This document shows, in pieces, positions 1,003 to 43,707 of a stretch of 64,000 nucleotides of DNA. Position numbers and translations under genes: made by a program. The DNA is taken from contig CAMQSU010000001.1 in NCBI GenBank assembly GCA_947037025.1, positions 111,522 through 175,521 on the forward strand, in the 5' to 3' direction. The stretch comes from an uncultured Clostridia bacterium. Lineage in GTDB: Bacteria; Bacillota; Clostridia; Christensenellales; UBA3700. The notes beneath the pieces are model-generated. The model saw only the letters and a program-made list of their open reading frames with translations, had not been told where the DNA came from and did no database searches. Within the stretch, counting starts at the first letter, position 1, and each line of letters opens with the position of its first letter.

Positions 1003-1906
1003 TTAAATTAGCTATTTTCCGTAAATGTTAAATGTAAGGCGTTTTTGCTGCAAATATCATATATACGGATAACTATTAATGCAGTGCATTTTTTGATGAT
1101 TGTAACGTAATAGTCATCAAAAACATTGTTATATAGTATCTTAAAAAAATGCAATTAAATTATATTTATAGAAAGAATGCAATTTAAAAAAAATATCATA
1201 AAAGGCAACCATTGTTGAATGGTTGCTTTTTTTATTAACAAATAATTATAAAAGCTTCAGAATATCCACGTAATAGGGAAAGTGTGAAGATATTGCCATT
1301 AAAACAAGCATATAATCCACATATAGTGGATTATAATCTACAGTCATTGCTTGTAATTAAAATTAATATACTATCCACATAGTGTGGATTATCAATTTAT
1401 ACGCTTAATATGTCATATGTTGCTAGGATGTGGTGATAATAGTATTAAGCAAAATTAATAAGCTAAAAGAAACCTTGTTAATTTTCTGCAAGTTGTAATT
1501 TTGATTATAGTCTGTGCAATTTATAAATCAGTGGTATTTTGGTGCGGATTTATATAAGAAATGCATGAAATAATGCAAACAATAAAAAAACATTGCATTT
1601 TAAATAAAGTTTTCGGAAATATATTGCAGATATTGATTAATTATGACTGCATTACAATTTTATTTTAAATAATATACGAAGATTAATTTGATAATATATG
1701 TAAAAACCACAAGATTATAGGGTAAAACAGTATAAATATCTATACATAATTCAAAATAATAACAATATCACTTGCAATTACACAGTATTGTGTTATAATG
1801 TAAAAGTATAGTAATGAACTTTTGCTGTATTTTACAAAAATGATTATTCCGAGCGATTAATAGTTATCTCAGGATATATAAATCGTATCGATTGATAGAG
1901 GTGTTT

Positions 1907-3916
1907 ATGAAAGATAAATTGAATAAACTTAAAGTTAAGACAACTAGAGAAGGATTGCTGCTTTTTGCAGATTTGCTAACTGTTGCAATTAGTTTAGTAC
2001 TAGCATATGTATTGACTCAAATTTATGTACTTGGAAACGAAGTTATACAGGAAAGTGTTGTAGGTGATCTACTAGTATCAATTGCAATCGTTGTAGGACT
2101 GAGTGCAGTAGCGTTCTGGATATTTGGCGTATTTAAGGTGCTTTGGCGTACGGCTAAGCCTTGGGATTATGCTAGAATTGTACTGGCAATGCTGTTTGTA
2201 ACTGTTATTTTTTCTCTTCTTGACAGTTTTTGGTTAAAGCTATTATCTAAAGATGATGCTCCAATCGATATTCAAGCATACCCAACTTATATTATATTCT
2301 TTTTTAACGCAATATTATTTTTATCAGTAATGAGAAGTGCATACCAAGCATATTACACTAAATTTCACAATAAAACAAAAAATATTATAAGACGTAGAAC
2401 GTTGATAATTGGTGCGGGTAATGCTGCAGATACAATTCTTAACGAAATGGAAAAGAGTAATTCTGATTATTTACCAGTATTTGCGTTAGATGATGATCCT
2501 AATAAATTGTGCCGTATTTTTAATGGAATAGAAATCATAGGTACTCTTAATGATATTAAGAAAATTTGCGAGCAATATAAAATAGAAGTCATTATATTTG
2601 CTATACCTTCTATGGATGATTATAAAAGCAGAAATATCCTTAGAGTATGCGGTCAGACTGGTTGTGACGTCAAGATAATACCGAGCGTTAGCGATATGAT
2701 TGAAAGCGATAGCCTAATTGGGCAAATGCGTAGTGTCAATATTAAAGATTTGCTTGATAGGCCTCAAATTGAGTTTGAGGAGCAGGGTGTAAGTGAGTAT
2801 GTATGCGGCAAGACTGTTATGGTTACTGGTGGCGGTGGGTCTATTGGATCAGAGCTTTGCAGGCAAATACTTAAGTTTGCGCCAAAACGAATTGTAATTG
2901 TAGAGATTTATGAAAACTGCGCATATGATATTCAGCAGGAAATTAACTCTATAAAAGGACTAGATGTTGACTTTAGAGTAGAGATTTTATCAGTTACTGA
3001 TTATGATAAACTTGTTAGCGTATTTGAGCAATATCACCCTGATATAGTTTTTCATGCAGCAGCACATAAGCATGTTCCTCTAATGGAGACTAACCCAGAA
3101 GAAGCTGTTAAAAATAATATTTTTGGAACATACAATACAATCAAGATAGCAGCTCAGTGTGAAGTTAAAAAGTTTATACTGATTAGCACAGATAAAGCTG
3201 TTAATCCTACAAATATTATGGGGGCAACAAAGCGTTGTTGTGAAAAAATTCTTCAACTTACTTCAAGATCAGACTGCAAAACTGAGTTTGCAGCTGTCAG
3301 ATTTGGAAATGTTTTAGGAAGCAATGGTTCCGTTATACCACTATTTAAAAGGCAAATTGAAAAGGGTGGACCTGTCACTGTAACTCATAAAGATATTATA
3401 AGATATTTTATGACTATACCAGAGGCCGTAAGTTTAGTTATGCAAGCGGGAGCGTTTGCGAAAAACGGTGAAATATTTGTACTTGATATGGGCGAGCAAG
3501 TGAAAATTGTAAGCCTAGCAGAAAATCTTATAAGAGCACTTGGTTATGTTCCGTATGCTGATATTGATATTAAGTTTACTGGATTGCGTCCAGGAGAAAA
3601 ACTTTTTGAAGAATTACTTATGAATGAAGAGGGCTTAAATAAGACTGATAACGATAAGATATTTGTTGGCACTCAAATTCAGTTTGATGATGATAAATTT
3701 ATTTCTGAGTTAGATAAAATGCAAAATATTTGTATGACAAATGACAAAGATGAAGTTATTAAACAATTAAAAATTCTTGTTCCAACATTTAAGCATGATA
3801 TGGCCCAGTATAATCACATGAAAGAGCATGATGAAATGATTAATATTGAGTTTATAAATAAGCGAGATTTATCTAAAAATAGTGAGGTAGTGCAGGTAAA
3901 TAATGATTTATCATAA
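1907..3916 (+). CDS. membrane-bound polysaccharide biosynthesis protein, CapD/PglF-like NDP-sugar 4,6-dehydratase/epimerase
   Basis: About four N-terminal TM helices are followed by two Rossmann regions (IIGAGNAA; VTGGGGSIGSEL). It has the SDR-type ...STDKAVNPTNIMGATKR... motif. I prefer the ATG at 1907 because GAGGTG lies just upstream; the track start at 1892 is a TTG. Confidence 0.85.
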   Translation: MKDKLNKLKVKTTREGLLLFADLLTVAISLVLAYVLTQIYVLGNEVIQESVVGDLLVSIAIVVGLSAVAFWIFGVFKVLWRTAKPWDYARIVLAMLFVTVIFSLLDSFWLKLLSKDDAPIDIQAYPTYIIFFFNAILFLSVMRSAYQAYYTKFHNKTKNIIRRRTLIIGAGNAADTILNEMEKSNSDYLPVFALDDDPNKLCRIFNGIEIIGTLNDIKKICEQYKIEVIIFAIPSMDDYKSRNILRVCGQTGCDVKIIPSVSDMIESDSLIGQMRSVNIKDLLDRPQIEFEEQGVSEYVCGKTVMVTGGGGSIGSELCRQILKFAPKRIVIVEIYENCAYDIQQEINSIKGLDVDFRVEILSVTDYDKLVSVFEQYHPDIVFHAAAHKHVPLMETNPEEAVKNNIFGTYNTIKIAAQCEVKKFILISTDKAVNPTNIMGATKRCCEKILQLTSRSDCKTEFAAVRFGNVLGSNGSVIPLFKRQIEKGGPVTVTHKDIIRYFMTIPEAVSLVMQAGAFAKNGEIFVLDMGEQVKIVSLAENLIRALGYVPYADIDIKFTGLRPGEKLFEELLMNEEGLNKTDNDKIFVGTQIQFDDDKFISELDKMQNICMTNDKDEVIKQLKILVPTFKHDMAQYNHMKEHDEMINIEFINKRDLSKNSEVVQVNNDLS

Positions 3917-3973
3917 TCGTTATTTTAATAGTTAAAATCATCAATAAAATAATAATTAAAAAAAGTAAAAACA

Positions 3974-4020
3974 CGCTCGCAATGAAAGAATTATATTCTA
4001 TCAGTGCGAGCGATTTTTTT
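3974..4020 (+). terminator. rho-independent terminator after the capD-like gene
   Basis: Stem CGCTCGCA (3974-3981) pairs with TGCGAGCG (4005-4012), followed by a T7 run. The loop is rather long. Confidence 0.55.
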
Positions 4021-4100
4021 ATCAATATATTAATTTTTTTTGTCATAAATTGCGCAGTAAAATCTGATCAGTAGTATAATAAAATAGTGGAGGATTAAAT

Positions 4101-4958
4101 ATGATATATGAGAAGAAAAACAAAGTATTACAAGGGGAAACTATAATTATTTCTGAGTTATCAGGTGACCTGAAAATCCAAATAATTGCTGATGAAATCG
4201 ATGATAATATTGCATACTATTTAGAGATTTTATGCCCGAAAAATATTAAGTATTGTTTGCAGCGGTGCACTGTTGAAGATCGAATTCTGAGTGTAGATAT
4301 TCCAAACGGAATTTTAGTCAGCAAGGGTGACATATATGGTCAAATTGTTTGTAGAGATAAAGTAGCAGGTAAAATTTTAGATAAATCGTTAGTTACAGCG
4401 CTACCTATAATCACCGTCACAAGGTCTATTAACGCATCTGATACCGTAAATATTAAGGCTGCTCATGATGTAATTGCGGAAATGATTATAGCGAAAGACA
4501 AAATGGAAGATGTCGCAGTAGAGCTTAGAGAAGATATTGTAGATAAAGTTGACCGTGCAGATGTAGATGGGGAGTTTGATAAGATAAATAAATCTTTAGT
4601 TAAAATATCTGATATTGTGAATTGTGACATGATAGGTTTTGATACAATGCAGGAAATTGCTGAATTGCTGGCATATACTAAAAACGGGGTTGAGGGATTA
4701 ATGAATTCTACAATTCCATTTATAGATTTTCGTATTGCAAAGCTCGATAATAGGCTGTTAGGATCAAGGGAGGGCGCAGTATTATTCTTTGATTATACCA
4801 ATGCGGACATGCAACTTATACATGAAGATAGTTTTTTGAATACAGTGGATAAAATCCATGCTATTTATGAAGGAATGTGGGAAAAAAATACTGGCATATT
4901 ATCGCAGCTTATTCCTGTAAATAGCGATAAAATTTTTTCATATATAAGGCTCTATTGA
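4101..4958 (+). CDS. hypothetical protein (no signal peptide, no recognised domain)
   Basis: 285-aa ORF with a GGAGGA RBS 8 nt upstream. It has normal coding composition, and a bidirectional terminator lies downstream. Confidence 0.5.
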   Translation: MIYEKKNKVLQGETIIISELSGDLKIQIIADEIDDNIAYYLEILCPKNIKYCLQRCTVEDRILSVDIPNGILVSKGDIYGQIVCRDKVAGKILDKSLVTALPIITVTRSINASDTVNIKAAHDVIAEMIIAKDKMEDVAVELREDIVDKVDRADVDGEFDKINKSLVKISDIVNCDMIGFDTMQEIAELLAYTKNGVEGLMNSTIPFIDFRIAKLDNRLLGSREGAVLFFDYTNADMQLIHEDSFLNTVDKIHAIYEGMWEKNTGILSQLIPVNSDKIFSYIRLY

Positions 4959-5060
4959 TGCTTATATTTTGAATAAAATAATATAATTATCAATTGGATA
5001 ATGAAAAGCTATAGAAAAAAAATATAGAAAATATATTGCAATTAAGCAATTTAAAAAAAA

Positions 5061-5090
5061 GGCAGCTCATATTATTATGAGCTGCCTTTT
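5061..5090. terminator. bidirectional rho-independent terminator between convergent genes
   Basis: GGCAGCTCAT / ATGAGCTGCC perfect 10-bp stem, flanked by an A8 run upstream and a T run downstream. Confidence 0.8.
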
Positions 5091-5230
5091 TATGTTAATA
5101 AACTATATTTTAATTTAATTTTGCTTAGCTAAACATAAAGTTAATTAGATATTAAATTACAAATTAATTGCTAATTTATTATCCGAAAATATATTTTTTG
5201 TCATCAAATTGCATTTAGGTTTTTGCAATA

Positions 5231-6406
5231 TTATTTAGCTAAATTAAATATCGCTACTAAGTCATCATAGTTCAATTGCTTAAATGATCCTAGAGTAGAT
5301 TTTCCGTTATTTGTGCCTATATTAGCTAGCTTGCTAATCAAACTATCGTCAAGAATAATATCAAATTCATTAATTGCAATTGGCATATTGATTGATTTGA
5401 AAAAGTCCTCCAGTGCTTTTATTCCTGCGAGACCGACTATCATATTGTCCTCACCTTTTATATCAAATACATCACGAGCGAAGGTAGCGAACCTTGATGG
5501 TTTAGTATCTATTACATATCTAGCCCAGCTGCTCCATAAAGCTGAAAGTCCAGCACCATGTGCAATATGGTCAAATTCTCCGCTTAATGTGTGCTCTATA
5601 TCGTGTGTTGCCCAGTCACCTGTCGCGCCACATCCAGTAAGGTCATTATGCGATATGCTGCCTGTCCACATAATCTCAGCTCTTGAATCGTAGTTAGTCG
5701 GATCTGCTAAAACTATTGATGCGTGCTTTAACATGTTTTTTATAACTGAAATGCAAATTTTATCAGTAATATCCATTGTTTCAACAGTTGTAAAATAACG
5801 CTCTAAAGTGTGTATCATTATATCAACTATACCGCATTTTGTTTGAAAGTCGGGCAGTGTAAATGTAAGTTCTGGATTAAGAATGCTAAATTTAGGTCTA
5901 CAAGACTCGTGACCAACAGCACGTTTATTATTAGTTTCATCATTTGTAATAACGCAACCACCGCTCATCTCGCTTCCGGCTGCTGCAAGAGTCAAAATAG
6001 TAGCAACAGGAAGGCAGTCTGTAGGAAATTCTGTACGCATAAATAAGTTCCAAACATCGCCATTATGCTTTACGCCAAATCCGATTGCCTTTGCACTATC
6101 GATAGTACTTCCTCCACCAACAGCGAGTATAAAATCAACGTTTTCTTTTTTGCATAATTCGATACCTTCTCTAACTAAAGATAGTTTAGGGTTTGGTGCA
6201 ACTCCGCCTAGAGTCACAAATGCAAGTCCGCTATCTTTAAGCGATTTGATAACTCGGTCAAGAAGTCCGCTTTTAATAACGCTTCCACCACCGTAGTGCA
6301 CAAGTACCTTTGTAGCACGAGCGTCGCTGCACAATTTGCCAGCCGATAGCTCTACACCTTTACCAAATACCATTTTGGTCGGTGCGTAGAATTCAAAATT
6401 ATTCAT
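5231..6406 (-). CDS. iron-containing (group III) alcohol dehydrogenase, butanol dehydrogenase/YqhD-like
   Basis: Fe-ADH signatures are present: AVGGGSTIDSAKAIG and the His cluster HDIEHTLSGEFDHIAHGAGL. The length of 391 aa is typical. Confidence 0.85.
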   Translation of the reverse strand: MNNFEFYAPTKMVFGKGVELSAGKLCSDARATKVLVHYGGGSVIKSGLLDRVIKSLKDSGLAFVTLGGVAPNPKLSLVREGIELCKKENVDFILAVGGGSTIDSAKAIGFGVKHNGDVWNLFMRTEFPTDCLPVATILTLAAAGSEMSGGCVITNDETNNKRAVGHESCRPKFSILNPELTFTLPDFQTKCGIVDIMIHTLERYFTTVETMDITDKICISVIKNMLKHASIVLADPTNYDSRAEIMWTGSISHNDLTGCGATGDWATHDIEHTLSGEFDHIAHGAGLSALWSSWARYVIDTKPSRFATFARDVFDIKGEDNMIVGLAGIKALEDFFKSINMPIAINEFDIILDDSLISKLANIGTNNGKSTLGSFKQLNYDDLVAIFNLAK

Positions 6407-6631
6407 AGATTTTCCCCTTTTTTGTAATATATTATTACACTTGACTTTATGATATCACATAAAATACAATTAGTCAATACTGATAGGCAAATCTATATTG
6501 ACAATATTATTTATTTATGATATAATTATAAAGATTAATTTATTAAACGCACGTGTCATAATTATTTAGATTATATGATACAATTAGCGTAAGTTGCTCG
6601 GCGGTGTCGCAGCGATAATATGGAGGTATGT

Positions 6632-7606
6632 ATGAAGTTTTCAGTATTAGGCTGTGGCAGATGGGGGTCTTTTATTACATGGTATTTGTCCGAGAAGAAA
6701 GGCTTTGATACTACTATGTATGGCAGGGAAGGCAGTGCTAGATTTAAGGCACTTTTAGATACTAAACAGAACGAATTTGTGAAATTAGATGATAGAGTCA
6801 AAATGACTAGTGATTTAGGCGAAGCGGTCAATTCTGCAGATTATATTGTAATCAGTATTTCCGCACAAGCTCTTAGAGAGTTTATAAGAAACATTGTTAA
6901 ATCTTATGATCTAGCTGACAAGAAAATCATTTTGTGCATGAAGGGAATGGAGCTTTCTAGCTGCAAGCGTCTTACGGAAGTTTGTATTGAAGAAGGCGTG
7001 AATCCTGAGAAAATAGCAGTTTGGCTTGGGCCTGGGCATATTCAAGACTTTACTCGAGGTATTCCTAACTGCATGACAATTGACGCGTATAACAGCGATT
7101 TATCTGAGGAACTTGCTAAATTACTTAGCAGTGATATTATTAGGTTTTATTTTGGCTCGGATATAATTGGTAGCGAAATCGGTGCGGCTTGCAAAAATAT
7201 TATGGGAATATGTGCCGGACTTTTAGACGGGTACGGATATTCAACATTAAAAGGCCCACTAATGTCAAGAGGTGCTTTTGAGGTTTCTAAGTTTATCGCG
7301 GCAATGGGCGGAGATGGATATTCAGCTTATGGATTAACTCATTTAGGTGATTATGAAACTACTTTGTTTTCAAAGCATTCTAACAATAGGCAATTTGGAG
7401 AGCAGCTTGCAAGCAACTTGCCATATGTAAAACTAGCAGAAGGTGTATCTACTTGCAAAGCAGTTGCAGATAAAGCACGTGAACTTGGTGTTGACATGCC
7501 TATAACTTTTGCAATACAGAAAGTTTTATTTGACAAAAGCGAACCGAAAACTGTACTTAATGAAATGTTTAATAGGACAATAAAAGTAGAAAAATACAGC
7601 AAATAA
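6632..7606 (+). CDS. gpsA: NAD(P)H-dependent glycerol-3-phosphate dehydrogenase
   Basis: It has the N-terminal Rossmann motif (VLGCGRWGS) and the GpsA-type KNIMGICAGLLDG motif. The start is moved to the ATG at 6632, directly after GGAGGT. Confidence 0.85.
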   Translation: MKFSVLGCGRWGSFITWYLSEKKGFDTTMYGREGSARFKALLDTKQNEFVKLDDRVKMTSDLGEAVNSADYIVISISAQALREFIRNIVKSYDLADKKIILCMKGMELSSCKRLTEVCIEEGVNPEKIAVWLGPGHIQDFTRGIPNCMTIDAYNSDLSEELAKLLSSDIIRFYFGSDIIGSEIGAACKNIMGICAGLLDGYGYSTLKGPLMSRGAFEVSKFIAAMGGDGYSAYGLTHLGDYETTLFSKHSNNRQFGEQLASNLPYVKLAEGVSTCKAVADKARELGVDMPITFAIQKVLFDKSEPKTVLNEMFNRTIKVEKYSK

Positions 7607-8013
7607 TAATGCATATTTAAGTTGCAAAAAATGACTTAAATACAAATATAATATATAATTAAATTGCAAATAAAATCATAAATTAATAACTGAATAATCA
7701 AAGATTAAAATTACACCGCAAGCTTATAGAAATATTAGATTGCGGTTTATTTTTTTTGCACTTGCAAATGTAGTATTTAAAATAAAATTATTCTGCAACT
7801 CCATAGCATTAATGCAGTTAATATAAAATAAATAATGTATTTATAATAATAAAAAATTGCAATATAAAAATAATATATAATGCAAATTTATATATAGATA
7901 TTCGCTATGATAAATACCGATAATAAATATTAGTGATAATTATTTTGTACTGCAAATATTTAGTTGTAATAATTTAATATTTATCACATATACATATTAC
8001 AAGAGGTGAATAT

Positions 8014-13494: not shown

Positions 13495-14766
13495 ATGAAA
13501 AGTATAGGAGTTGCGATATTAGGATTTGGTACAGTTGGAAGCGGTACATACAATATTTTGACAGAGCGTAGAGAGCAAATTAAATTAGAGTATGGCATTG
13601 ATATTACTGTCAGTGCAATTCTTGTTAGAAATGCGCATAAGGCTATTGCAAATGGCGCACCGCAGGAGCTTTTGACTGATAGCATGTCGGATATACTTGC
13701 TAATCCTGCAATAAATATAGTTGCGGAATGTGTGGGCGGTATTGAGCCGGCGAAAACTTATCTTATAGATTCATTAAAGTGCGGTAAAACAATTGTAACT
13801 GCAAACAAGGAATTATTTGCAAAGCACTGGGGAGAGTTAGAGATGCACGCAGCAAAAACGAAAGCTGGGTTGTATTTTGAGGCTACTTGCGGTGGTGGTA
13901 TTCCTGTTATACGTGTACTTACACAGGCAATGCAAGCAAACACATTACTTCAAATAAAAGGAATAATAAACGGCACAACTAACTACATTTTATCAAGAAT
14001 GTCAGATGAGGGAGCAAGTTATGATGATGTGCTTCGTGATGCGCAAGCGTTAGGATTTGCAGAGAGTGACCCTACTGCTGATGTTGAAGGGTATGATGCT
14101 AGCTATAAACTATCAATATTAAGTTCACTTGCATTTAATAAATTTTTGCCAGTAGAGAACATTTATCGTGAGGGAATTAGTAGCATTCAAGCGGAAGATA
14201 TCAATATAGGAAAGAAACTTGGGTATACAATAAAGTTACTTGCAATTGCAAAACTTATTGACGGTAAAGTTGAGGCAAGAGTTCATCCAGTATTTTTGAA
14301 AAATTGTCATCCACTTGCAAGTGTTTCAGGCTCTTTTAATGCTGTTTTCCTTGTTGGCGATAATGTTGGCGATATTATGCTTTATGGTCGTGGTGCAGGT
14401 TCACTTCCGACTGGTAGTGCGATTGTTAGTGATATAGTATTTGCAGCAAGACAGATCGAGCATGCAAGATATTCAGAGATTTCTGATGTTATTAAAAAGT
14501 CGGATATTATAACAGACTTTACAAGTGATTATTACATTCGTATGACAGTGCTTGATGTGCAAGGAGTGCTTAGTCAAATTACTAGTATTTTTGCAGGAAA
14601 TAATGTCAGCATTACAAGTATGCGACAGGATGCCGGCAATGGCGTTGTTAGTATTGTTATGGTCACTCATAGGTCAAATGAAAACAATATAAAAAAGGCG
14701 ATTGCAGAGCTTAAATCTTTAAGTGAAGTTCAAGCAGTTAACGCATTAATAAGAGTAGAAAAGTAA
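13495..14766 (+). CDS. hom: homoserine dehydrogenase with C-terminal ACT domain
   Basis: It has ILGFGTVGSG, the catalytic-domain DVEGYDASYKLSIL motif, and an ACT-like C-terminus. The start is at MKSIGV, after GGAGGA. Confidence 0.9.
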   Translation: MKSIGVAILGFGTVGSGTYNILTERREQIKLEYGIDITVSAILVRNAHKAIANGAPQELLTDSMSDILANPAINIVAECVGGIEPAKTYLIDSLKCGKTIVTANKELFAKHWGELEMHAAKTKAGLYFEATCGGGIPVIRVLTQAMQANTLLQIKGIINGTTNYILSRMSDEGASYDDVLRDAQALGFAESDPTADVEGYDASYKLSILSSLAFNKFLPVENIYREGISSIQAEDINIGKKLGYTIKLLAIAKLIDGKVEARVHPVFLKNCHPLASVSGSFNAVFLVGDNVGDIMLYGRGAGSLPTGSAIVSDIVFAARQIEHARYSEISDVIKKSDIITDFTSDYYIRMTVLDVQGVLSQITSIFAGNNVSITSMRQDAGNGVVSIVMVTHRSNENNIKKAIAELKSLSEVQAVNALIRVEK

Positions 14767-14788
14767 TCAATAAAGATTTGTAATTTTA

Positions 14789-14830
14789 TATGCACAATGA
14801 TTATTATATCATTGTGCATATTGTAATTTT
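14789..14830 (+). terminator. rho-independent terminator after hom
   Basis: TATGCACAATGA (14789-14800) pairs with TCATTGTGCATA (14809-14820), followed by a T-rich tail. Confidence 0.7.
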
Positions 14831-15409
14831 GCAGCAATTTTTTCCTGCTGAATAAGTCTACATAAAATTAAAAAAAACAGCAATGTGTAATTGCAAATTA
14901 TGTAAAATATTTTATAAATTAATTAAAAGAAAATACAATCAAAAAATCTAGTGAGAATCATACAAAATTATACATTATGCAGATTAATTAAAAGAGTTTG
15001 TTTAATGGTAAAAGCAAATTTTTTTGCATTTTAATTTTTTGCATAAAGTGTTGCAATGCATTGCTATTATATGCAAGCTGCGGTGTATTTTTAAAATGCA
15101 AGCAATTTAATTATGGATTATTTGGATTAATTAAAATCTAGAGTTAATATGTATGTTATATATAATAGCTTTAAGGTTAATAATTATCAAGGTGCTGCTA
15201 TTGACTAATTTATTTTCAAAGTCGGTAGTGACATAATATCTTCGCTTATGATTAGTGTATGTTCAAATTATTATGGTGAGTATTAATCTTTGCAAAAATG
15301 CTGTTTAATTAAATTTTTGGACTATTTACTGCGCCATACATAATCTTACTCATTACCAATGCTTATAACAGCACGAATGATTAGTTAAGACAAACTATAC
15401 AAAATCATT

Positions 15410-15438
15410 TTGCACATGCTATAAATATGTGCTATAAT
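15410..15438 (+). promoter_or_regulatory. sigma-A promoter with extended -10, upstream of guaA
   Basis: TTGCAC (15410-15415), a 17-nt spacer, then TGcTATAAT (15430-15438). Confidence 0.6.
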
Positions 15439-15467
15439 ATATAAAATAAAGTACTAAGGAGTGTTAT

Positions 15468-16733
15468 ATGGATATCAGACAAACAGTGGTCATAGTCGAC
15501 CTTTCAGGCAAATGTAACCAGCTTATCGCAAGATGCGTTCGTAACTTAAATGTTTATTGCAAGCTTGTGGGCGACAATGCGAAAATCGAGGACATCAAAA
15601 AGGATCAACCAATCGGTATTATACTAACTGGCGAGTCTGACGGTGCTAGACCTATCGAGGCAGCAGTAAAGACTCTTGGCGTTCCAGTATTCGATGAGCG
15701 TACTGAAGCTGACATTGAGGGAAAAGCTGGAATGGCTAACCTTCGTGAGTTTTTATACAACACTTGCGCCGCTAAAGGCGATTGGACAATGAAAGCTTTC
15801 TCTGAGCATATGATTAGTGAGCTTCGCGAAAAGATAGGTAACAAGAAAGTTCTTTGCGCGCTTAGTGGTGGTGTTGATAGTGCTGTTTGTGCGGCACTTA
15901 TTCATAAAGCTGCTCCGCAGTCACTTACTTGTGTTTATGTTAATCATGGATTAATGAGAAAGAACGAGTCTGAGGAAATCGTAAGAATTTTTGGCAAAGA
16001 GTTAGGAATGAACCTTATATATATTGATGCAGAGGATAGATTCCTAGGCAAACTAAAAGGTGTTACTGAGCCAGAGGCAAAAAGAAAAATTATCGGTGAG
16101 GAGTTTATTCGTGTGTTTGAGGACGAGGCGAAGAAAATCGGAACTGTTGACTTCCTTGTTCAAGGTACAATTTACCCTGATATCATCGAGAGCGGTATCG
16201 GTAGCAAAGGTCTTGTTAAAAGTCACCACAATGTTGGCGGACTTCCAGATGTTATCGACTTTAACGAGATTTTAGAGCCTGTTCGTGATCTTTTCAAGGA
16301 CGAGGTAAGAAAAGTTGGTCGTGAGATTGGACTTCCTGAAGCACAAGTTAACCGTCAACCATTCCCAGGCCCTGGTCTTGGCGTGCGTTGTATCGGCGAA
16401 CTTAGAAAAGATAGGCTTGATATTCTTCGTGATGTTGACTTTATCTTCCGTGAGGAAATCGCAAAAGCTGGTTGGGATACAAAAATTTGGCAGTACTTTG
16501 CAGTGCTTACTAATATGCAAAGTGTTGGCGTTCGTGATGAAGTTAGAACATATGAGTACACTGTCGCACTTCGTGCTATCCACAGTATAGATGCTATGTC
16601 TGCTGAGTTCGTTCATATCCCTTATGAGATATTAGCTAAAGCAAGCCGCAGAATTACAGACGAGGTTATCGGTGTAAACCGTATCGTTTATGATATTACT
16701 AATAAGCCACCTTCTACTATAGAGTGGGAGTAA
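15468..16733 (+). CDS. guaA: GMP synthase with intact ATP-pyrophosphatase and dimerisation domains but an internally deleted glutamine amidotransferase domain
   Basis: The PP-loop (SGGVDSAV) and C-terminus (...NKPPSTIEWE) are canonical. The N-terminus keeps only the first ~75 aa of the GATase fold. At GVPVF|DERTEAD it jumps to the linker, so the Cys-His-Glu triad region is lost. The product is 421 aa versus about 510-525 aa as I recall for typical GuaA. Confidence 0.85.
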   Translation: MDIRQTVVIVDLSGKCNQLIARCVRNLNVYCKLVGDNAKIEDIKKDQPIGIILTGESDGARPIEAAVKTLGVPVFDERTEADIEGKAGMANLREFLYNTCAAKGDWTMKAFSEHMISELREKIGNKKVLCALSGGVDSAVCAALIHKAAPQSLTCVYVNHGLMRKNESEEIVRIFGKELGMNLIYIDAEDRFLGKLKGVTEPEAKRKIIGEEFIRVFEDEAKKIGTVDFLVQGTIYPDIIESGIGSKGLVKSHHNVGGLPDVIDFNEILEPVRDLFKDEVRKVGREIGLPEAQVNRQPFPGPGLGVRCIGELRKDRLDILRDVDFIFREEIAKAGWDTKIWQYFAVLTNMQSVGVRDEVRTYEYTVALRAIHSIDAMSAEFVHIPYEILAKASRRITDEVIGVNRIVYDITNKPPSTIEWE

Positions 16734-17058
16734 GAACAGCGCTTTCGACCAATCGTAATATTGAGCTGCGGGATGCACTCTTAGCTTGTTTTGGCATGTT
16801 TGCCAAAAGCTACGCACTTGCGTTTCCCTTGCTCTTTTCCGACCAAACGTAATATTTCGCTTCGCTGCAACATTAGTCGGACTCTAAATCGGTTTACTTC
16901 AATTACAAGAGTAAGTTTGTTATGCTAGAGTTTATTAAGAGTAGGAAAGTGAGAAAGACAAGAGTAGAAAAGTGAGAAAGCATTAAAAAAAATTAATAAA
17001 AACTCGTAACACTAAACAGTGTTGCGAGTTTTTTAATTTATGTATACTATAGAGTATT

Positions 17059-17307
17059 CTACTGTCTATATTGATTGCGCAGAGCATATTGACCGTGACC
17101 TATCCTTGTGAATAGCTTGGTATATGTGAAGCTATGTTTTTCGGATGTAGAATTAGCTAATATAACATTTAAGTAACGAATTGAATAATTTAATTCATTT
17201 TCATAGCAGAAATCTTTTATTTTTTTAGTTGTTAGCGGTTCAATCAATTTTCCGCCATTTACAGCGTCAATTATAAATGCACCTAATCCTTCAATACTTT
17301 CATTCAT
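17059..17307 (-). CDS. small hypothetical protein, possible winged-helix C-terminus
   Basis: 82-aa ORF with an AGGAGGA RBS. The C-terminal FTRIGHGQYAL resembles the wing of Mrr_N/HARE-type wHTH domains; this is weak. It is an orphan gene between long spacers. Confidence 0.35.
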   Translation of the reverse strand: MNESIEGLGAFIIDAVNGGKLIEPLTTKKIKDFCYENELNYSIRYLNVILANSTSEKHSFTYTKLFTRIGHGQYALRNQYRQ

Positions 17308-17679
17308 TTTAAATATCCTCCTAATTAATTGTTAAGCTACAAGACTTTTGTTAATAGCTCTTGAGGGAATTATAACACTAACAACCTATAAAAGATATTA
17401 AATTAGGGTGACAAGTTTTGTTTCGTGCATCATATTTTTCATAAGCGATTTATCTTTTATGTGTAAGTTTAGAGAACTTTTGTTTTAATTACTTGTAAGT
17501 GGCTCCATAAATAGTGTACTTAACTTATAAACTATCCCTACAATGATTATTTATATTATATTTTAACAAAGTATGCTGTTTTAATTGATATTTTACGTTA
17601 TTTGAGTTAAAATGTAAAAGTATAAACTTTTTCACGCGTATAATGGATATTCTACGCAAAGTAGCAAAGGGAGGCTAAC

Positions 17680-19482
17680 ATGTCTAATAGACAAGATAAT
17701 ATAAGAAATTTTTGTATCGTGGCACATATTGATCACGGTAAGAGTACACTAGCCGATAGGATAATGGAGTACACGGAGACTGTAAGCAAGCGTGACTCTA
17801 AGGAGCAGTTATTAGACAGCATGGATATTGAGCGTGAGAGAGGAATAACTATCAAGCTTACTCCAGTTACAATGAAATACAATTATAAGGGTCAGGAATA
17901 TTATTTAAATCTTATTGATACTCCTGGGCATGTCGATTTCACATACGAAGTATCAAGGTCGCTTGCTGCTTGCGAAGGTGCAATACTTATTGTTGATGCG
18001 TCACAAGGAATTGAGGCGCAGACACTTACAAACGCGTATCTTGCAGTTGATAATGACCTAGAGATATTGCCAGTAATTAACAAGATTGATTTGCCTTCTG
18101 CTAGACCTGACGAAATAAAGTTAGAAATTGAGGATATTATTGGACTTGACACTGACGGTATTGCACTGATCAGTGCAAAGGAAGGCACAAACATTGAGCA
18201 AGTTATTCATCAAGTAATAGACTTGCTACCTCCACCGAATGGTGATGAGAGTAAGCCGCTTAAAGCACTTATTTTTGATAGTGTTTATGATAGTTATAAG
18301 GGCGCAATCTCACTAATCCGTGTGGTTGATGGCTCAATAAAAATCGGCACAAAGATCAGGATGATGCAAACTGGAAAAACTTATGATGTTACAGAAGTAG
18401 GAATATTTAATCCTAAAATGATACCAATTGATGAGCTTAGGGCTGGTGATGTTGGGTATATGTGTGCATCAATAAAGAACGTTGCTGATACAAAAGTTGG
18501 CGATACAATTACTCTTGCAGATGGAGGAGTGACGCAATCACTTCCGGGATATAAAGCGGTTTCGCCAATGGTATACTCTGGTATTTATCCAGCGGATGGC
18601 GCGCATTATGGCGACCTGAAAGACGCACTAGAAAAGTTAAAGCTGAATGATGCGTCACTAATGTATGAGAATGAAGTATCAGTTGCACTTGGTTTTGGAT
18701 TCCGTTGCGGATTTTTAGGACTATTGCACATGGAAATTATTCAAGAGAGATTAGAGCGTGAGTTTGATTTAGATATCGTAACTACAGCTCCGAGTGTTTC
18801 ATACAAAGTTGTAAAGACTGATGGAAATACTATCATAGTTGCAAACCCTTCTAACTTGCCTCCAGCAGGAGAGATTGAATATATGGAAGAGCCGATTGTA
18901 AAAGCTTCTCTATTTTCTCCGCCTGAGTATGTTGGTACGATAATGGATTTGTGTCAAGATAAAAGAGGCGTATTTATTGATATAACATACCTTGATACAA
19001 GACGTGTTAGGATTGATTATGAAATACCGCTGAATGAAGTTATATATGATTTCTTTGATACATTAAAGTCAAGGACAAAAGGATATGCAAGCTTTGATTA
19101 TGAAATCACAGGCTACCAACGCAGCGCACTTGTAAAACTTGACTTGCTGCTAAATGCGGAAATTTGCGATGCACTAAGCCTAATTGTACACAGAGATAAG
19201 GCATATGCACGTGGTAGAATTATTGCGGAAAAACTAAAAGATGTTATCCCTCGTCAAATGTTTGAGATACCTATTCAGGCAAGCATTGGATCAAAAGTTA
19301 TCGCTCGTGAGACGGTTAAGGCAATGAGGAAAGACGTTCTTGCTAAGTGTTACGGTGGTGATATTACTCGTAAAAAGAAACTTTTAGAAAAGCAAAAAGA
19401 AGGCAAGAAGCGTATGCGTCAAGTAGGTAACGTATCTGTTCCTAGTGAAGCATTTATGACTATTCTTAAATTTGACAAGTAA
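17680..19482 (+). CDS. lepA: translation elongation factor 4
   Basis: GTPase motifs are present ([18 protein letters not shown]), along with the LepA-specific C-terminal domain. The length of 600 aa is typical. Confidence 0.95.
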
Positions 19483-26192: not shown

Positions 26193-26462
26193 ACTGTGCT
26201 AAGTGGGGAGCTAGCGGTGCCCTATAACCTGCAATCCGCTACAGCAGGACCGAATACTACCGTAGGCATAATGTATGGAAGGCAGTCTAAGATAAGGAGC
26301 GTTGATCACAAGGTCTTGTGCAACGTCTCACTGTGAACCATGTCAGAGCTTGATCGCAGCAGCATTAAGCAGACCGAGATGTGTGCCACGAGGGTGCTTT
26401 GTAGTAGCCACCTGTTTGAGCAACGCTTCGGTATGTTATGTCAAGGGAAGTTGCACAGTCTT
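26193..26462 (+). ncRNA. ffs: signal recognition particle RNA, long Bacillus type with Alu domain (scRNA/4.5S homologue)
   Basis: By eye it matches my recollection of B. subtilis scRNA. The 5' Alu part is GTGCTAAGTGGGGAGCTAGCGGTGCCCTATAACCTGCAATCCGCTACAGCAGGACCGAAT. The domain IV region is GAACCATGTCAGAGCTTGATCGCAGCAGCATTAAGCAG. The 5' ACTGTGC pairs with the 3' GCACAGT. A terminator follows. Confidence 0.85.
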
Positions 26463-43360: not shown

Positions 43361-43707
43361 GGGGTTGTTCTGGATTCGACAGGCGGTCGGGAGATGTTGT
43401 AAGCATGCCGTAGGCTCGGCTACGTTAAAACGGAAACAAAACTTAAACGCTAAAAATAATAATTACGCTTTAGCTGCCTAGGCAGAGAGCTGTCGTGCTA
43501 GTAGTCCTGTCGGACTAGATTTCGGCATCATTTAGACGGGAAGGTCACTTTGCATTTGGTGCGCGGCATAGTGATAAATTAGCACCTTACCAAAGTATAG
43601 CCCGCCAACAGGCGATACTAAGGGAAATTCAAATTGTTGCGCTAAGCATGTAGAAAGTAATGTCAAACACTGTTTGGACACGGGTTCAATTCCCGTCAGC
43701 TCCACCA
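43361..43707 (+). ncRNA. ssrA: transfer-messenger RNA (tmRNA)
   Basis: The 5' end is GGGGTTGTTCTGGATTCGACAGG. The 3' T-arm and acceptor read GGACACGGGTTCAATTCCCGTCAGCTCCACCA. The tag reading frame is GCT AAA AAT AAT AAT TAC GCT TTA GCT GCC TAG, giving (A)KNNNYALAA. Confidence 0.9.

Follow-up and report, generated by a model that had tools for sequence, protein, structure and literature searches.

A short GuaA lacking the glutaminase catalytic core, probably an ammonia-dependent GMP synthetase, in uncultured gut Christensenellales

Guanosine monophosphate (GMP) synthetase is the textbook model of a glutamine amidotransferase with ammonia channelling. Reviews of the enzyme describe two architectures, a two-domain form in bacteria and eukaryotes and a two-subunit form in archaea, and report that the catalytic triad is invariant across GMP synthetase sequences (PMC9312489, PMC10526850). 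The isolated ATP-pyrophosphatase (ATPPase) domains of the E. coli and P. falciparum enzymes and the ATPPase subunit of M. jannaschii convert xanthosine monophosphate (XMP) to GMP with external NH3 (PMC10526850), and mutants in which the catalytic Cys is replaced by Ala keep NH4Cl-dependent GMP formation (PMC9312489, PMC10526850). Our literature search, with most subscription journals outside its coverage, found no natural bacterial GMP synthetase without an active glutaminase, only in-vitro ammonia activity of canonical enzymes. Here we analyze a short guaA gene (15468-16733, plus strand) in a 64,000-nucleotide (nt) stretch of DNA from an uncultured Clostridia bacterium of the order Christensenellales (assembly GCA_947037025.1, contig CAMQSU010000001.1, positions 111,522 to 175,521), which we call the window. 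Its reading frame is open and encodes a 421-residue GuaA with a complete ATPPase and dimerisation part.

To define what this protein has and lacks, we compared it with family models and with GuaA of E. coli. The NCBIfam equivalog model NF000848 (PRK00074; GuaA, 512 positions) matches in two pieces, query residues 1-72 to model positions 1-72 and query residues 86-421 to positions 174-512, leaving about 101 model positions without a counterpart; the score of 545.9 bits passes the cut-off of 400 and comes almost wholly from positions 174-512. The model of the C-terminal half, TIGR00884, also passes (458.6 against a cut-off of 338.75), and that of the N-terminal half, TIGR00888, fails (39.3 against 172.15) and is matched at positions 1-73 only. 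In Pfam, the GMP synthase C-terminal domain is matched at E 2.5e-40, together with PP-loop families, and the class-I glutaminase family PF00117 reaches E 0.17 over residues 8-55 only. Against E. coli GuaA (Protein Data Bank, PDB, entry 1GPM), query residues 6-75 align with residues 9-83, ending in "...GVPVF", and the alignment restarts at query residues 86-121, which correspond to residues 188-223. In between, the query has just 10 residues (DERTEADIEG) in place of E. coli residues 84-187, which start with G84-V85-C86-Y-G and include Cys86 and the region of the His/Glu pair. An alignment with 20 full-length relatives of the same order showed neither the nucleophile motif GICYG nor the His/Glu motif HPE in the protein. 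PDB entries of GuaA match the 421-residue protein down to E 3e-122.

These comparisons bear out the original prediction, which was made from the sequence letters and had claimed that the first strands of the amidotransferase domain are kept, that about 95-105 residues with the Cys and the His/Glu pair are missing, and that the sequence resumes at the linker (query residue 86 is E. coli residue 188). Its view that the synthetase half is intact also holds: PP-loop SGGVDS, VKSHHN, and KPPSTIEWE are all found. Thus, of the features that mark a glutamine-hydrolysing GMP synthase, the protein has the PP-loop ATPPase with the catalytic Asp/Glu helix, the lid loop (VKSHHN for IK(T/S)HHN), and the dimerisation domain with KPPxTxE(F/W)x, and lacks a complete Cys-His-Glu glutaminase domain. 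Because the triad residues are missing, the short form should be unable to hydrolyse glutamine by the triad mechanism, and we predict that glutamine-dependent conversion of XMP to GMP is lost. The name "glutamine-hydrolyzing", which follows from the NCBIfam cut-off and is carried by the database entries of relatives, is probably wrong for the whole family, a systematic misannotation.

The source is a 1.62-Mb metagenome-assembled genome (MAG) that is 74% complete, and we analyzed it within a genus set of nine genomes (G000-G008), of which the other eight are 93-98% complete. The junction at which the deletion lies is spanned by independently assembled Logan contigs of three sequencing runs, drawn from two studies; two are identical to the window and the third carries one substitution well 3′ of the junction. 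Since the same architecture recurs in assemblies of at least 10 other species, the deletion is real, and an assembly artefact is excluded. The same short form is the sole guaA in all nine genus genomes and in two sister genera (G014 and G015), and these class A sequences are 72-95% identical to the query. Many further genomes of the order carry a more divergent class B (47-51% identical to the query, starting MKQDMIVILDLGSEEN), either together with a full-length guaA (G010, G013, G017, G020, G022, G029, and G033) or as the only copy (G018, G023, G027, and G037). In an order-wide sample of 401 genomes, 355 had a GuaA match, and about 60 of these, from more than 20 families, look short-only, a figure estimated from the E-value band of the best match, with the architecture verified in 17. 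Among 1.84 billion cluster representatives searched, at least 10 clusters at 50% identity are colinear with the whole query (394-439 residues). Among relatives with a name, the nearest are MAGs from mouse gut and other gut sources that carry the label Christensenella or Christensenellaceae. The deletion first noticed in this genome is therefore not peculiar to it: the search of relatives found it in all eight congeners and the sister genera, and what was seen is one member of a conserved, diversified family that elsewhere is a paralogue beside full-length guaA.

We next consider whether the remaining enzyme could make GMP. Across 25 short and 30 full-length sequences aligned together, the PP-loop, D238, E241, K251, H253, and H254 of the lid loop, and K277 and D278 of LFKDEVR are invariant, as are R405, K413, and E419 of the C-terminal XMP-binding loop. 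The roles of the adenyl-XMP-forming and XMP-binding residues, established by mutagenesis, have been reviewed (PMC10526850, PMC9312489), and their transfer from P. falciparum GMP synthetase (PfGMPS) to the query, made by motif register, is putative. In PfGMPS, the helix corresponding to that of D238 and E241 carries the catalytic Asp and Glu (PMC10526850). The ATPPase and dimerisation parts are 60-65% identical to those of bona fide full-length GuaA of the same order. Whole-genome profile searches found no second guaA in the window's genome or its congeners. All 13 other genomes tested have an intact guaB, the gene for IMP dehydrogenase; the window's draft genome yields it in two pieces at contig ends. 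In G014 and G015 it is directly upstream of the short guaA in an apparent operon. Because guaB is retained, XMP should be made and an aminase is needed.

From sequence and genomic context, we conclude that the short GuaA is probably a functional, ammonia-dependent GMP synthetase. As the sole GuaA of the genus, it would act downstream of an intact IMP dehydrogenase and would catalyze XMP + ATP + NH3 → GMP + AMP + PPi, with free ammonia aminating adenyl-XMP. Of the options listed in the original prediction, use of free ammonia is thus the one favoured, by the invariance of the residues, the sole-copy status, the link to guaB, and the lack of a partner glutaminase described below; a non-canonical role has gained no positive support. 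That NH3 is the nitrogen donor, that the vestige has a role, and that the affinity suffices for gut ammonia are the parts we infer. Ammonia in the gut is in the millimolar range. The gut origin of the relatives and the assimilation of ammonia by glutamine synthetase type III count as support for ammonia dependence. The sole glutamine synthetase detected in the genus is a type III enzyme of about 710 residues (G000:C30:4758-5282 and congeners), and no type I GlnA was found in the genus, unlike in the relative G011. The ATPPase subunit of M. jannaschii alone has a KM(NH4+) of 4.1 mM and a kcat equal to that of the glutamine-driven holoenzyme (PMC10526850).

Several points weigh against ammonia dependence. 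The KM(NH4+) of canonical two-domain enzymes is high, 10.8-174 mM and 103 mM for E. coli (PMC10526850), and a good ammonia affinity of the short GuaA is assumed. The genus still uses the glutamine-dependent enzymes PurF and PurL and shows no general retreat from glutamine chemistry. A wholesale loss of glutamine chemistry was rejected, as PurF, the type III glutamine synthetase, and a large PurL that includes a glutaminase domain are all present, and the cells thus produce and consume glutamine in other pathways. ATPPase domains in isolation are active with no glutaminase remnant, so that catalysis alone leaves a conserved vestige unexplained (PMC10526850). The window's genome is 74% complete, and the sole-copy argument rests mainly on the congeners. 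Finally, homology searches could miss a partner of a non-class-I kind.

The conservation of the vestige calls for a closer look at it. An AlphaFold2 model of the protein (mean predicted local distance difference test score, pLDDT, 84.9; predicted template modelling score, pTM, 0.84) folds residues 1-76 as β1-α1-β2-α2-β3-α3-β4 with pLDDT 79-93, followed by a helix at residues 86-99. The model superposes on two-domain GuaA with a template modelling (TM) score of 0.82-0.87 (query-normalised) versus 0.61-0.66 on archaeal ATPPase-only subunits, and because of this higher score to two-domain GuaA we place the relic where the N-lobe of the glutaminase domain would be. The interface helix α1 (NQLIARCVRN) is kept, and D11, Q18, R22, R25, and V29, on or around it, are invariant in short and full-length forms. 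Other parts of the vestige have changed: GGQY has become SG(K/R)C (SGKC in the query) and TGGP has become TGES (GES in the query). The GGQY and GGP motifs presumably line the glutamine site and the oxyanion hole in class-I glutaminases. The ratio of nonsynonymous to synonymous substitution rates (dN/dS, Nei-Gojobori) between congeners is 0.06-0.12 for the 75-residue relic; the ATPPase core has 0.02-0.04 and the dimerisation domain 0.02-0.05, with query-versus-congener pairs up to 0.12. The relic is more relaxed than the rest, yet purifying selection on it is clear.

What the relic does would have to be something other than glutamine chemistry. By its altered motifs and missing core, the lobe would neither bind nor hydrolyse glutamine. 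Because isolated ATPPase domains are active, its conservation needs a role beyond catalysis, for which folding, stability, control of the lid loop, or a partner may be candidates. In PfGMPS, helix α1 touches the ATPPase helices α11 and α12 and mediates cross-talk between the domains (PMC10526850), and on the basis of these contacts we propose that the relic has been kept as part of the interface or as a cap. In canonical GMP synthetases, α1 packs against the pair of ATPPase helices bearing the catalytic Asp/Glu and the LFKDEVR Lys, and the lobe would then be retained for this helix as a structural or allosteric cap.

The history of the short form was examined in a phylogeny built from the ATPPase and dimerisation part. 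It gives good support to class A and to class B (the latter with an intermediate from G034) as separate clades, and both lie on one side of a short branch (length 0.02-0.04, support 94/94). A single origin for the main clade, which unites the query and the divergent paralogue type, is compatible with this tree at moderate support. One origin for all short forms is not supported: in a 95-sequence tree, a further short clade (P0064/77/79/100/111) nests within full-length sequences with 99% support in the Shimodaira-Hasegawa-like approximate likelihood ratio test (SH-aLRT), and the truncation therefore arose at least twice. Intermediate forms exist. L037 (G034:C21), of 461 residues, has degenerate last glutaminase strands, with GVHEGAS for GICYGSQ and FTPA for FHPE, and P0114, P0116, and P0117 (444-447 residues) keep "SYG", a Cys-to-Ser change of "CYG", before a shorter deletion. 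A candidate full-length GuaA within the genus clade, P0018 (513 residues), was rejected: it comes from a 2,091-nt ENA metagenome contig and is chimeric, with its N-terminal ~300 residues from another organism's full-length GuaA, its last ~210 residues 100% identical to the genus short form, and the join within the highly conserved KRKIIGEEFIRVFE...QGTIYPDIIESG block. Separately, in a 98%-complete genome, guaA lies in two overlapping ORFs (open reading frames; G026:C2:107441-108954, model positions 1-319 and 312-512), which is either a frameshifted pseudogene or a sequencing error.

The loss of full-length guaA goes together with loss of a second glutamine-dependent synthetase, CTP synthase. 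Whole-genome searches of G000-G008, G014, G015, G018, and G023 found pyrG (PF06418) absent from the genus and from three related genera (g7, g8, and g11). In a sample of 80 genomes of the order, pyrG was missing from 35 of the 44 that are apparently short-only and from 5 of the 36 with a full-length guaA (Fisher's exact p = 5e-9, uncorrected for phylogeny), and the pattern recurs in many families. The two genes are neighbours in G109, G157, and G062. In G029 (G029:C1:1085400-1098360; L043, locus coordinates 1309-7964), glmS on the minus strand is followed by pyrG (3369-4979), full-length guaA (4992-6521), and a short class B guaA (6609-7964), that is, three glutamine amidotransferase genes and then a glutaminase-less paralogue. 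Given this adjacency, a single deletion could remove both pyrG and full-length guaA, after which the short paralogue would be the one remaining GMP synthetase. The absence of pyrG implies reliance on salvage of cytidine or cytosine and a joint loss with full-length guaA.

We weighed four other explanations against ammonia-dependent GMP synthesis. The first is that the protein no longer makes GMP, which would come from salvage, and instead acts on another substrate by adenylation or amination, or plays a regulatory or moonlighting part. Coexistence of the divergent short form with full-length guaA in many relatives gives room for a new function, and at a few positions of the ATPPase and dimerisation parts the short forms depart systematically from full-length GuaA, for example MGD to R(D/N)E at 356-358. 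However, every XMP-binding, ATP-binding, and catalytic residue is invariant, the ATPPase part stays close to full-length GuaA and has a very low dN/dS, and the short form is the sole GuaA in the genus and in g7, g8, and g11 while guaB is retained, in an apparent operon with it in G014 and G015. We consider neofunctionalisation unlikely.

The second is a two-component amidotransferase, in which a separate glutaminase feeds the short GuaA as archaeal GuaAA feeds GuaAB, and the lobe is a docking site or is complemented in trans. Two-subunit GMP synthetases do exist in archaea (PMC10526850). The vestige is conserved with its interface helix, and in some relatives the short form adjoins glutaminase-bearing genes (pyrG and full-length guaA in G029, carA-carB in G037). 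The search for a second guaA or a stand-alone class I glutaminase that the original prediction had suggested found neither in the window's genome or its congeners: no PF00117 protein was detected at E ≤ 0.001 in the eight congeners or at E ≤ 0.01 in the window's own genome, and no fragment matching the missing GuaA positions 77-171 was detected in the nine genus genomes. A TIGR00888 search of the genus at E ≤ 1 returned the vestige itself, MetA, and MurC only. The lenient matches are ORFs of about 300 residues in the congeners and one of 450 residues in the window's genome, of which we checked one each; as partner candidates both were rejected, the former being MetA (HTS family, with a glutaminase-like fold) and the latter MurC. 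The single PF00117 protein of G014, of about 200 residues, was likewise rejected, as it is HisH within the his operon; G015 also encodes a single PF00117 protein of about 198 residues. A further triad glutaminase turned up in the genus only as a fused part of the 1,250-residue PurL. By homology, the genus encodes neither a GuaAA-like partner nor a separate copy of the missing piece, and the borrowed glutaminase that had been put forward as an option is disfavoured there. We regard this arrangement as very unlikely.

A third idea, which we hold to be a long shot, is that the relic is more than scaffolding and serves to dock or gate an ammonia source other than a class-I glutaminase, such as the type III glutamine synthetase, PurL, or a deaminase. 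Were it true, the short GuaA would belong to a new kind of two-component nitrogen-transfer system whose spread is linked to the recurrent loss of pyrG together with full-length guaA in Christensenellales of the gut. The last, a decaying pseudogene or an assembly or binning artefact, was hinted at by the loss of one domain's catalytic core, the incomplete MAG, and the apparently full-length P0018 inside the genus clade, but it is barely credible, since the frame, preserved as the original prediction had noted, is open, dN/dS is 0.02-0.12 across the gene, the architecture recurs in at least 10 species and in no fewer than 10 clusters at 50% identity, the junction is spanned by independent contigs of two studies, and P0018 is itself chimeric.

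The features of the locus are collected in Table 1. The promoter-like site lies about 30 nt 5′ of the guaA start codon, and the terminator-like hairpin downstream may also serve a convergent small ORF. A pattern scan found a second such hairpin 3′ of the upstream gene hom (homoserine dehydrogenase), at 14788-14821, and because guaA has its own promoter-like site and hairpins follow both hom and guaA, the gene looks monocistronic here. The first 10 residues of the junction segment occupy the place of about 104 residues of canonical GuaA, with the nucleophile elbow bearing Cys and the His/Glu pair, and the segment is the least conserved part among the congeners.

Table 1. Coordinates of the short guaA and its elements in the window
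Feature	Position	Strand	Basis
Promoter-like site, TTTGCA-18 nt-TG-TATAAT	15409..15438	+	Consensus scan, 10/12 matches with extended -10; pattern match, putative
Shine-Dalgarno AAGGAG, 6 nt before ATG	15456..15461	+	Direct sequence reading
Short guaA coding sequence (421 residues + stop)	15468..16733	+	ORF listing; NF000848 545.9 bits; TIGR00884 458.6 bits
Vestigial class-I glutaminase N-lobe, residues 1-75	15468..15692	+	Aligns to 1GPM residues 9-83
Junction segment, residues 76-87, DERTEADIEGKA	15693..15728	+	Alignments
Last glutaminase-domain helix and interdomain linker, residues 88-108, GMANLREFLYNTCAAKGDWTM	15729..15791	+	Aligns to E. coli GuaA 188-210
ATPPase core, residues 109-328	15792..16451	+	Pfam and NCBIfam matches
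PP-loop SGGVDS, residues 133-138	15864-15881	+	Motif
Catalytic-helix residues D238, E241	16179-16190, inside QGTIYPDIIESG stretch at 16161-16196	+	Motif register
Lid-loop VKSHHN, residues 250-255	16215-16232	+	Motif
LFKDEVR	16290-16310	+	Motif
Dimerisation domain, residues 329-421	16452..16730	+	PF00958 E 2.5e-40, full model 1-92
XMP-binding C-terminal motif KPPSTIEWE, residues 413-421	16704-16730	+	Motif as in PMC9312489
Terminator-like hairpin, 16-bp stem then T-run	16998..17033	+	Pattern scan; 265 nt past guaA stop

The spacer between hom and guaA (14767-15467 of the window) is very AT-rich and 701 nt long, and measures 166-186 nt in congeners (L026 and L024). Rfam searches found no riboswitch or leader near guaA, at the gathering threshold across the whole window or at E ≤ 1 across 14700-17700, and the spacer had no match. 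On the minus strand at 17305-17380, the SAM-III (SMK-box) riboswitch model is matched weakly over its full length, with 22.1 bits (gathering score 45) and E 0.078. The match borders directly on the start of an orphan 82-residue ORF without a Pfam match (17059-17307, minus strand), the position expected of an SMK box, but its score falls far short of the threshold. Elsewhere in the window are genes for the large bacterial SRP RNA (26194-26458) and tmRNA (43361-43707), which are ordinary housekeeping RNAs.

If ammonia dependence is correct, the short GuaA would be a third natural architecture of GMP synthetase and would mean that cells in ammonia-rich gut habitats can live with GMP synthesis that depends strictly on ammonia. 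It would also offer a natural experiment on what the N-lobe and α1 do for the synthetase besides supplying ammonia. The apparent misannotation as "glutamine-hydrolyzing GMP synthase" affects metabolic models of many uncultured gut Clostridia, and together with the co-loss of pyrG, the short form points to nucleotide and nitrogen dependencies that could aid cultivation.

Compared with known systems, the short form is closest in descent to bacterial two-domain GuaA (EC 6.3.5.2; E. coli 1GPM, A. baumannii 7SBC). It belongs to the same gene lineage, with the same PP-loop, lid loop, and C-terminal XMP motif, and is colinear with it in the N-terminal 75 residues and the last glutaminase helix, and its predicted fold superposes with a TM score of 0.86, against 0.63-0.66 on archaeal ATPPase-only subunits. 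Unlike that enzyme, it has lost about 104 residues, among them the nucleophile Cys, the His/Glu pair, and the bulk of the glutamine pocket, and its GGQY and GGP motifs are degenerate. Archaeal GuaAB (P. horikoshii 2DPL, M. jannaschii 6JP9) likewise has no active glutaminase and is 45-49% identical over the ATPPase and dimerisation parts, but it begins at the ATPPase domain and has a dedicated GuaAA gene, whereas the short GuaA has a folded 75-residue relic and a linker helix. Neither mark of an archaeal-type subunit B, a protein of ATPPase and dimerisation parts only or a separate GuaAA in the genome, was found. The short form derives from bacterial two-domain GuaA and not from the archaeal split form. 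The pairs of ammonia- and glutamine-dependent NadE and of AsnA and AsnB are synthetases with or without a glutaminase module, of which the module-less form uses free ammonia. They follow the same logic in other families and on other substrates, and NH3-dependent NadE lacks the nitrilase-type domain and keeps no conserved relic; the PP-loop part of the short GuaA weakly matches NadE families. Such ammonia- and glutamine-dependent amidoligase pairs are treated in PMC6946656. The C89A mutant of PfGMPS and the isolated E. coli and P. falciparum ATPPase domains have lost glutamine activity and kept NH4Cl-dependent GMP formation (PMC9312489, PMC10526850); these dead or truncated forms are engineered laboratory constructs, whereas the short GuaA is natural, selected, widespread, and in some lineages the sole GMP synthetase. 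By analogy, its closest functional counterparts appear to be the archaeal ATPPase subunit alone and the NH3/glutamine pairs of NadE and asparagine synthetase.

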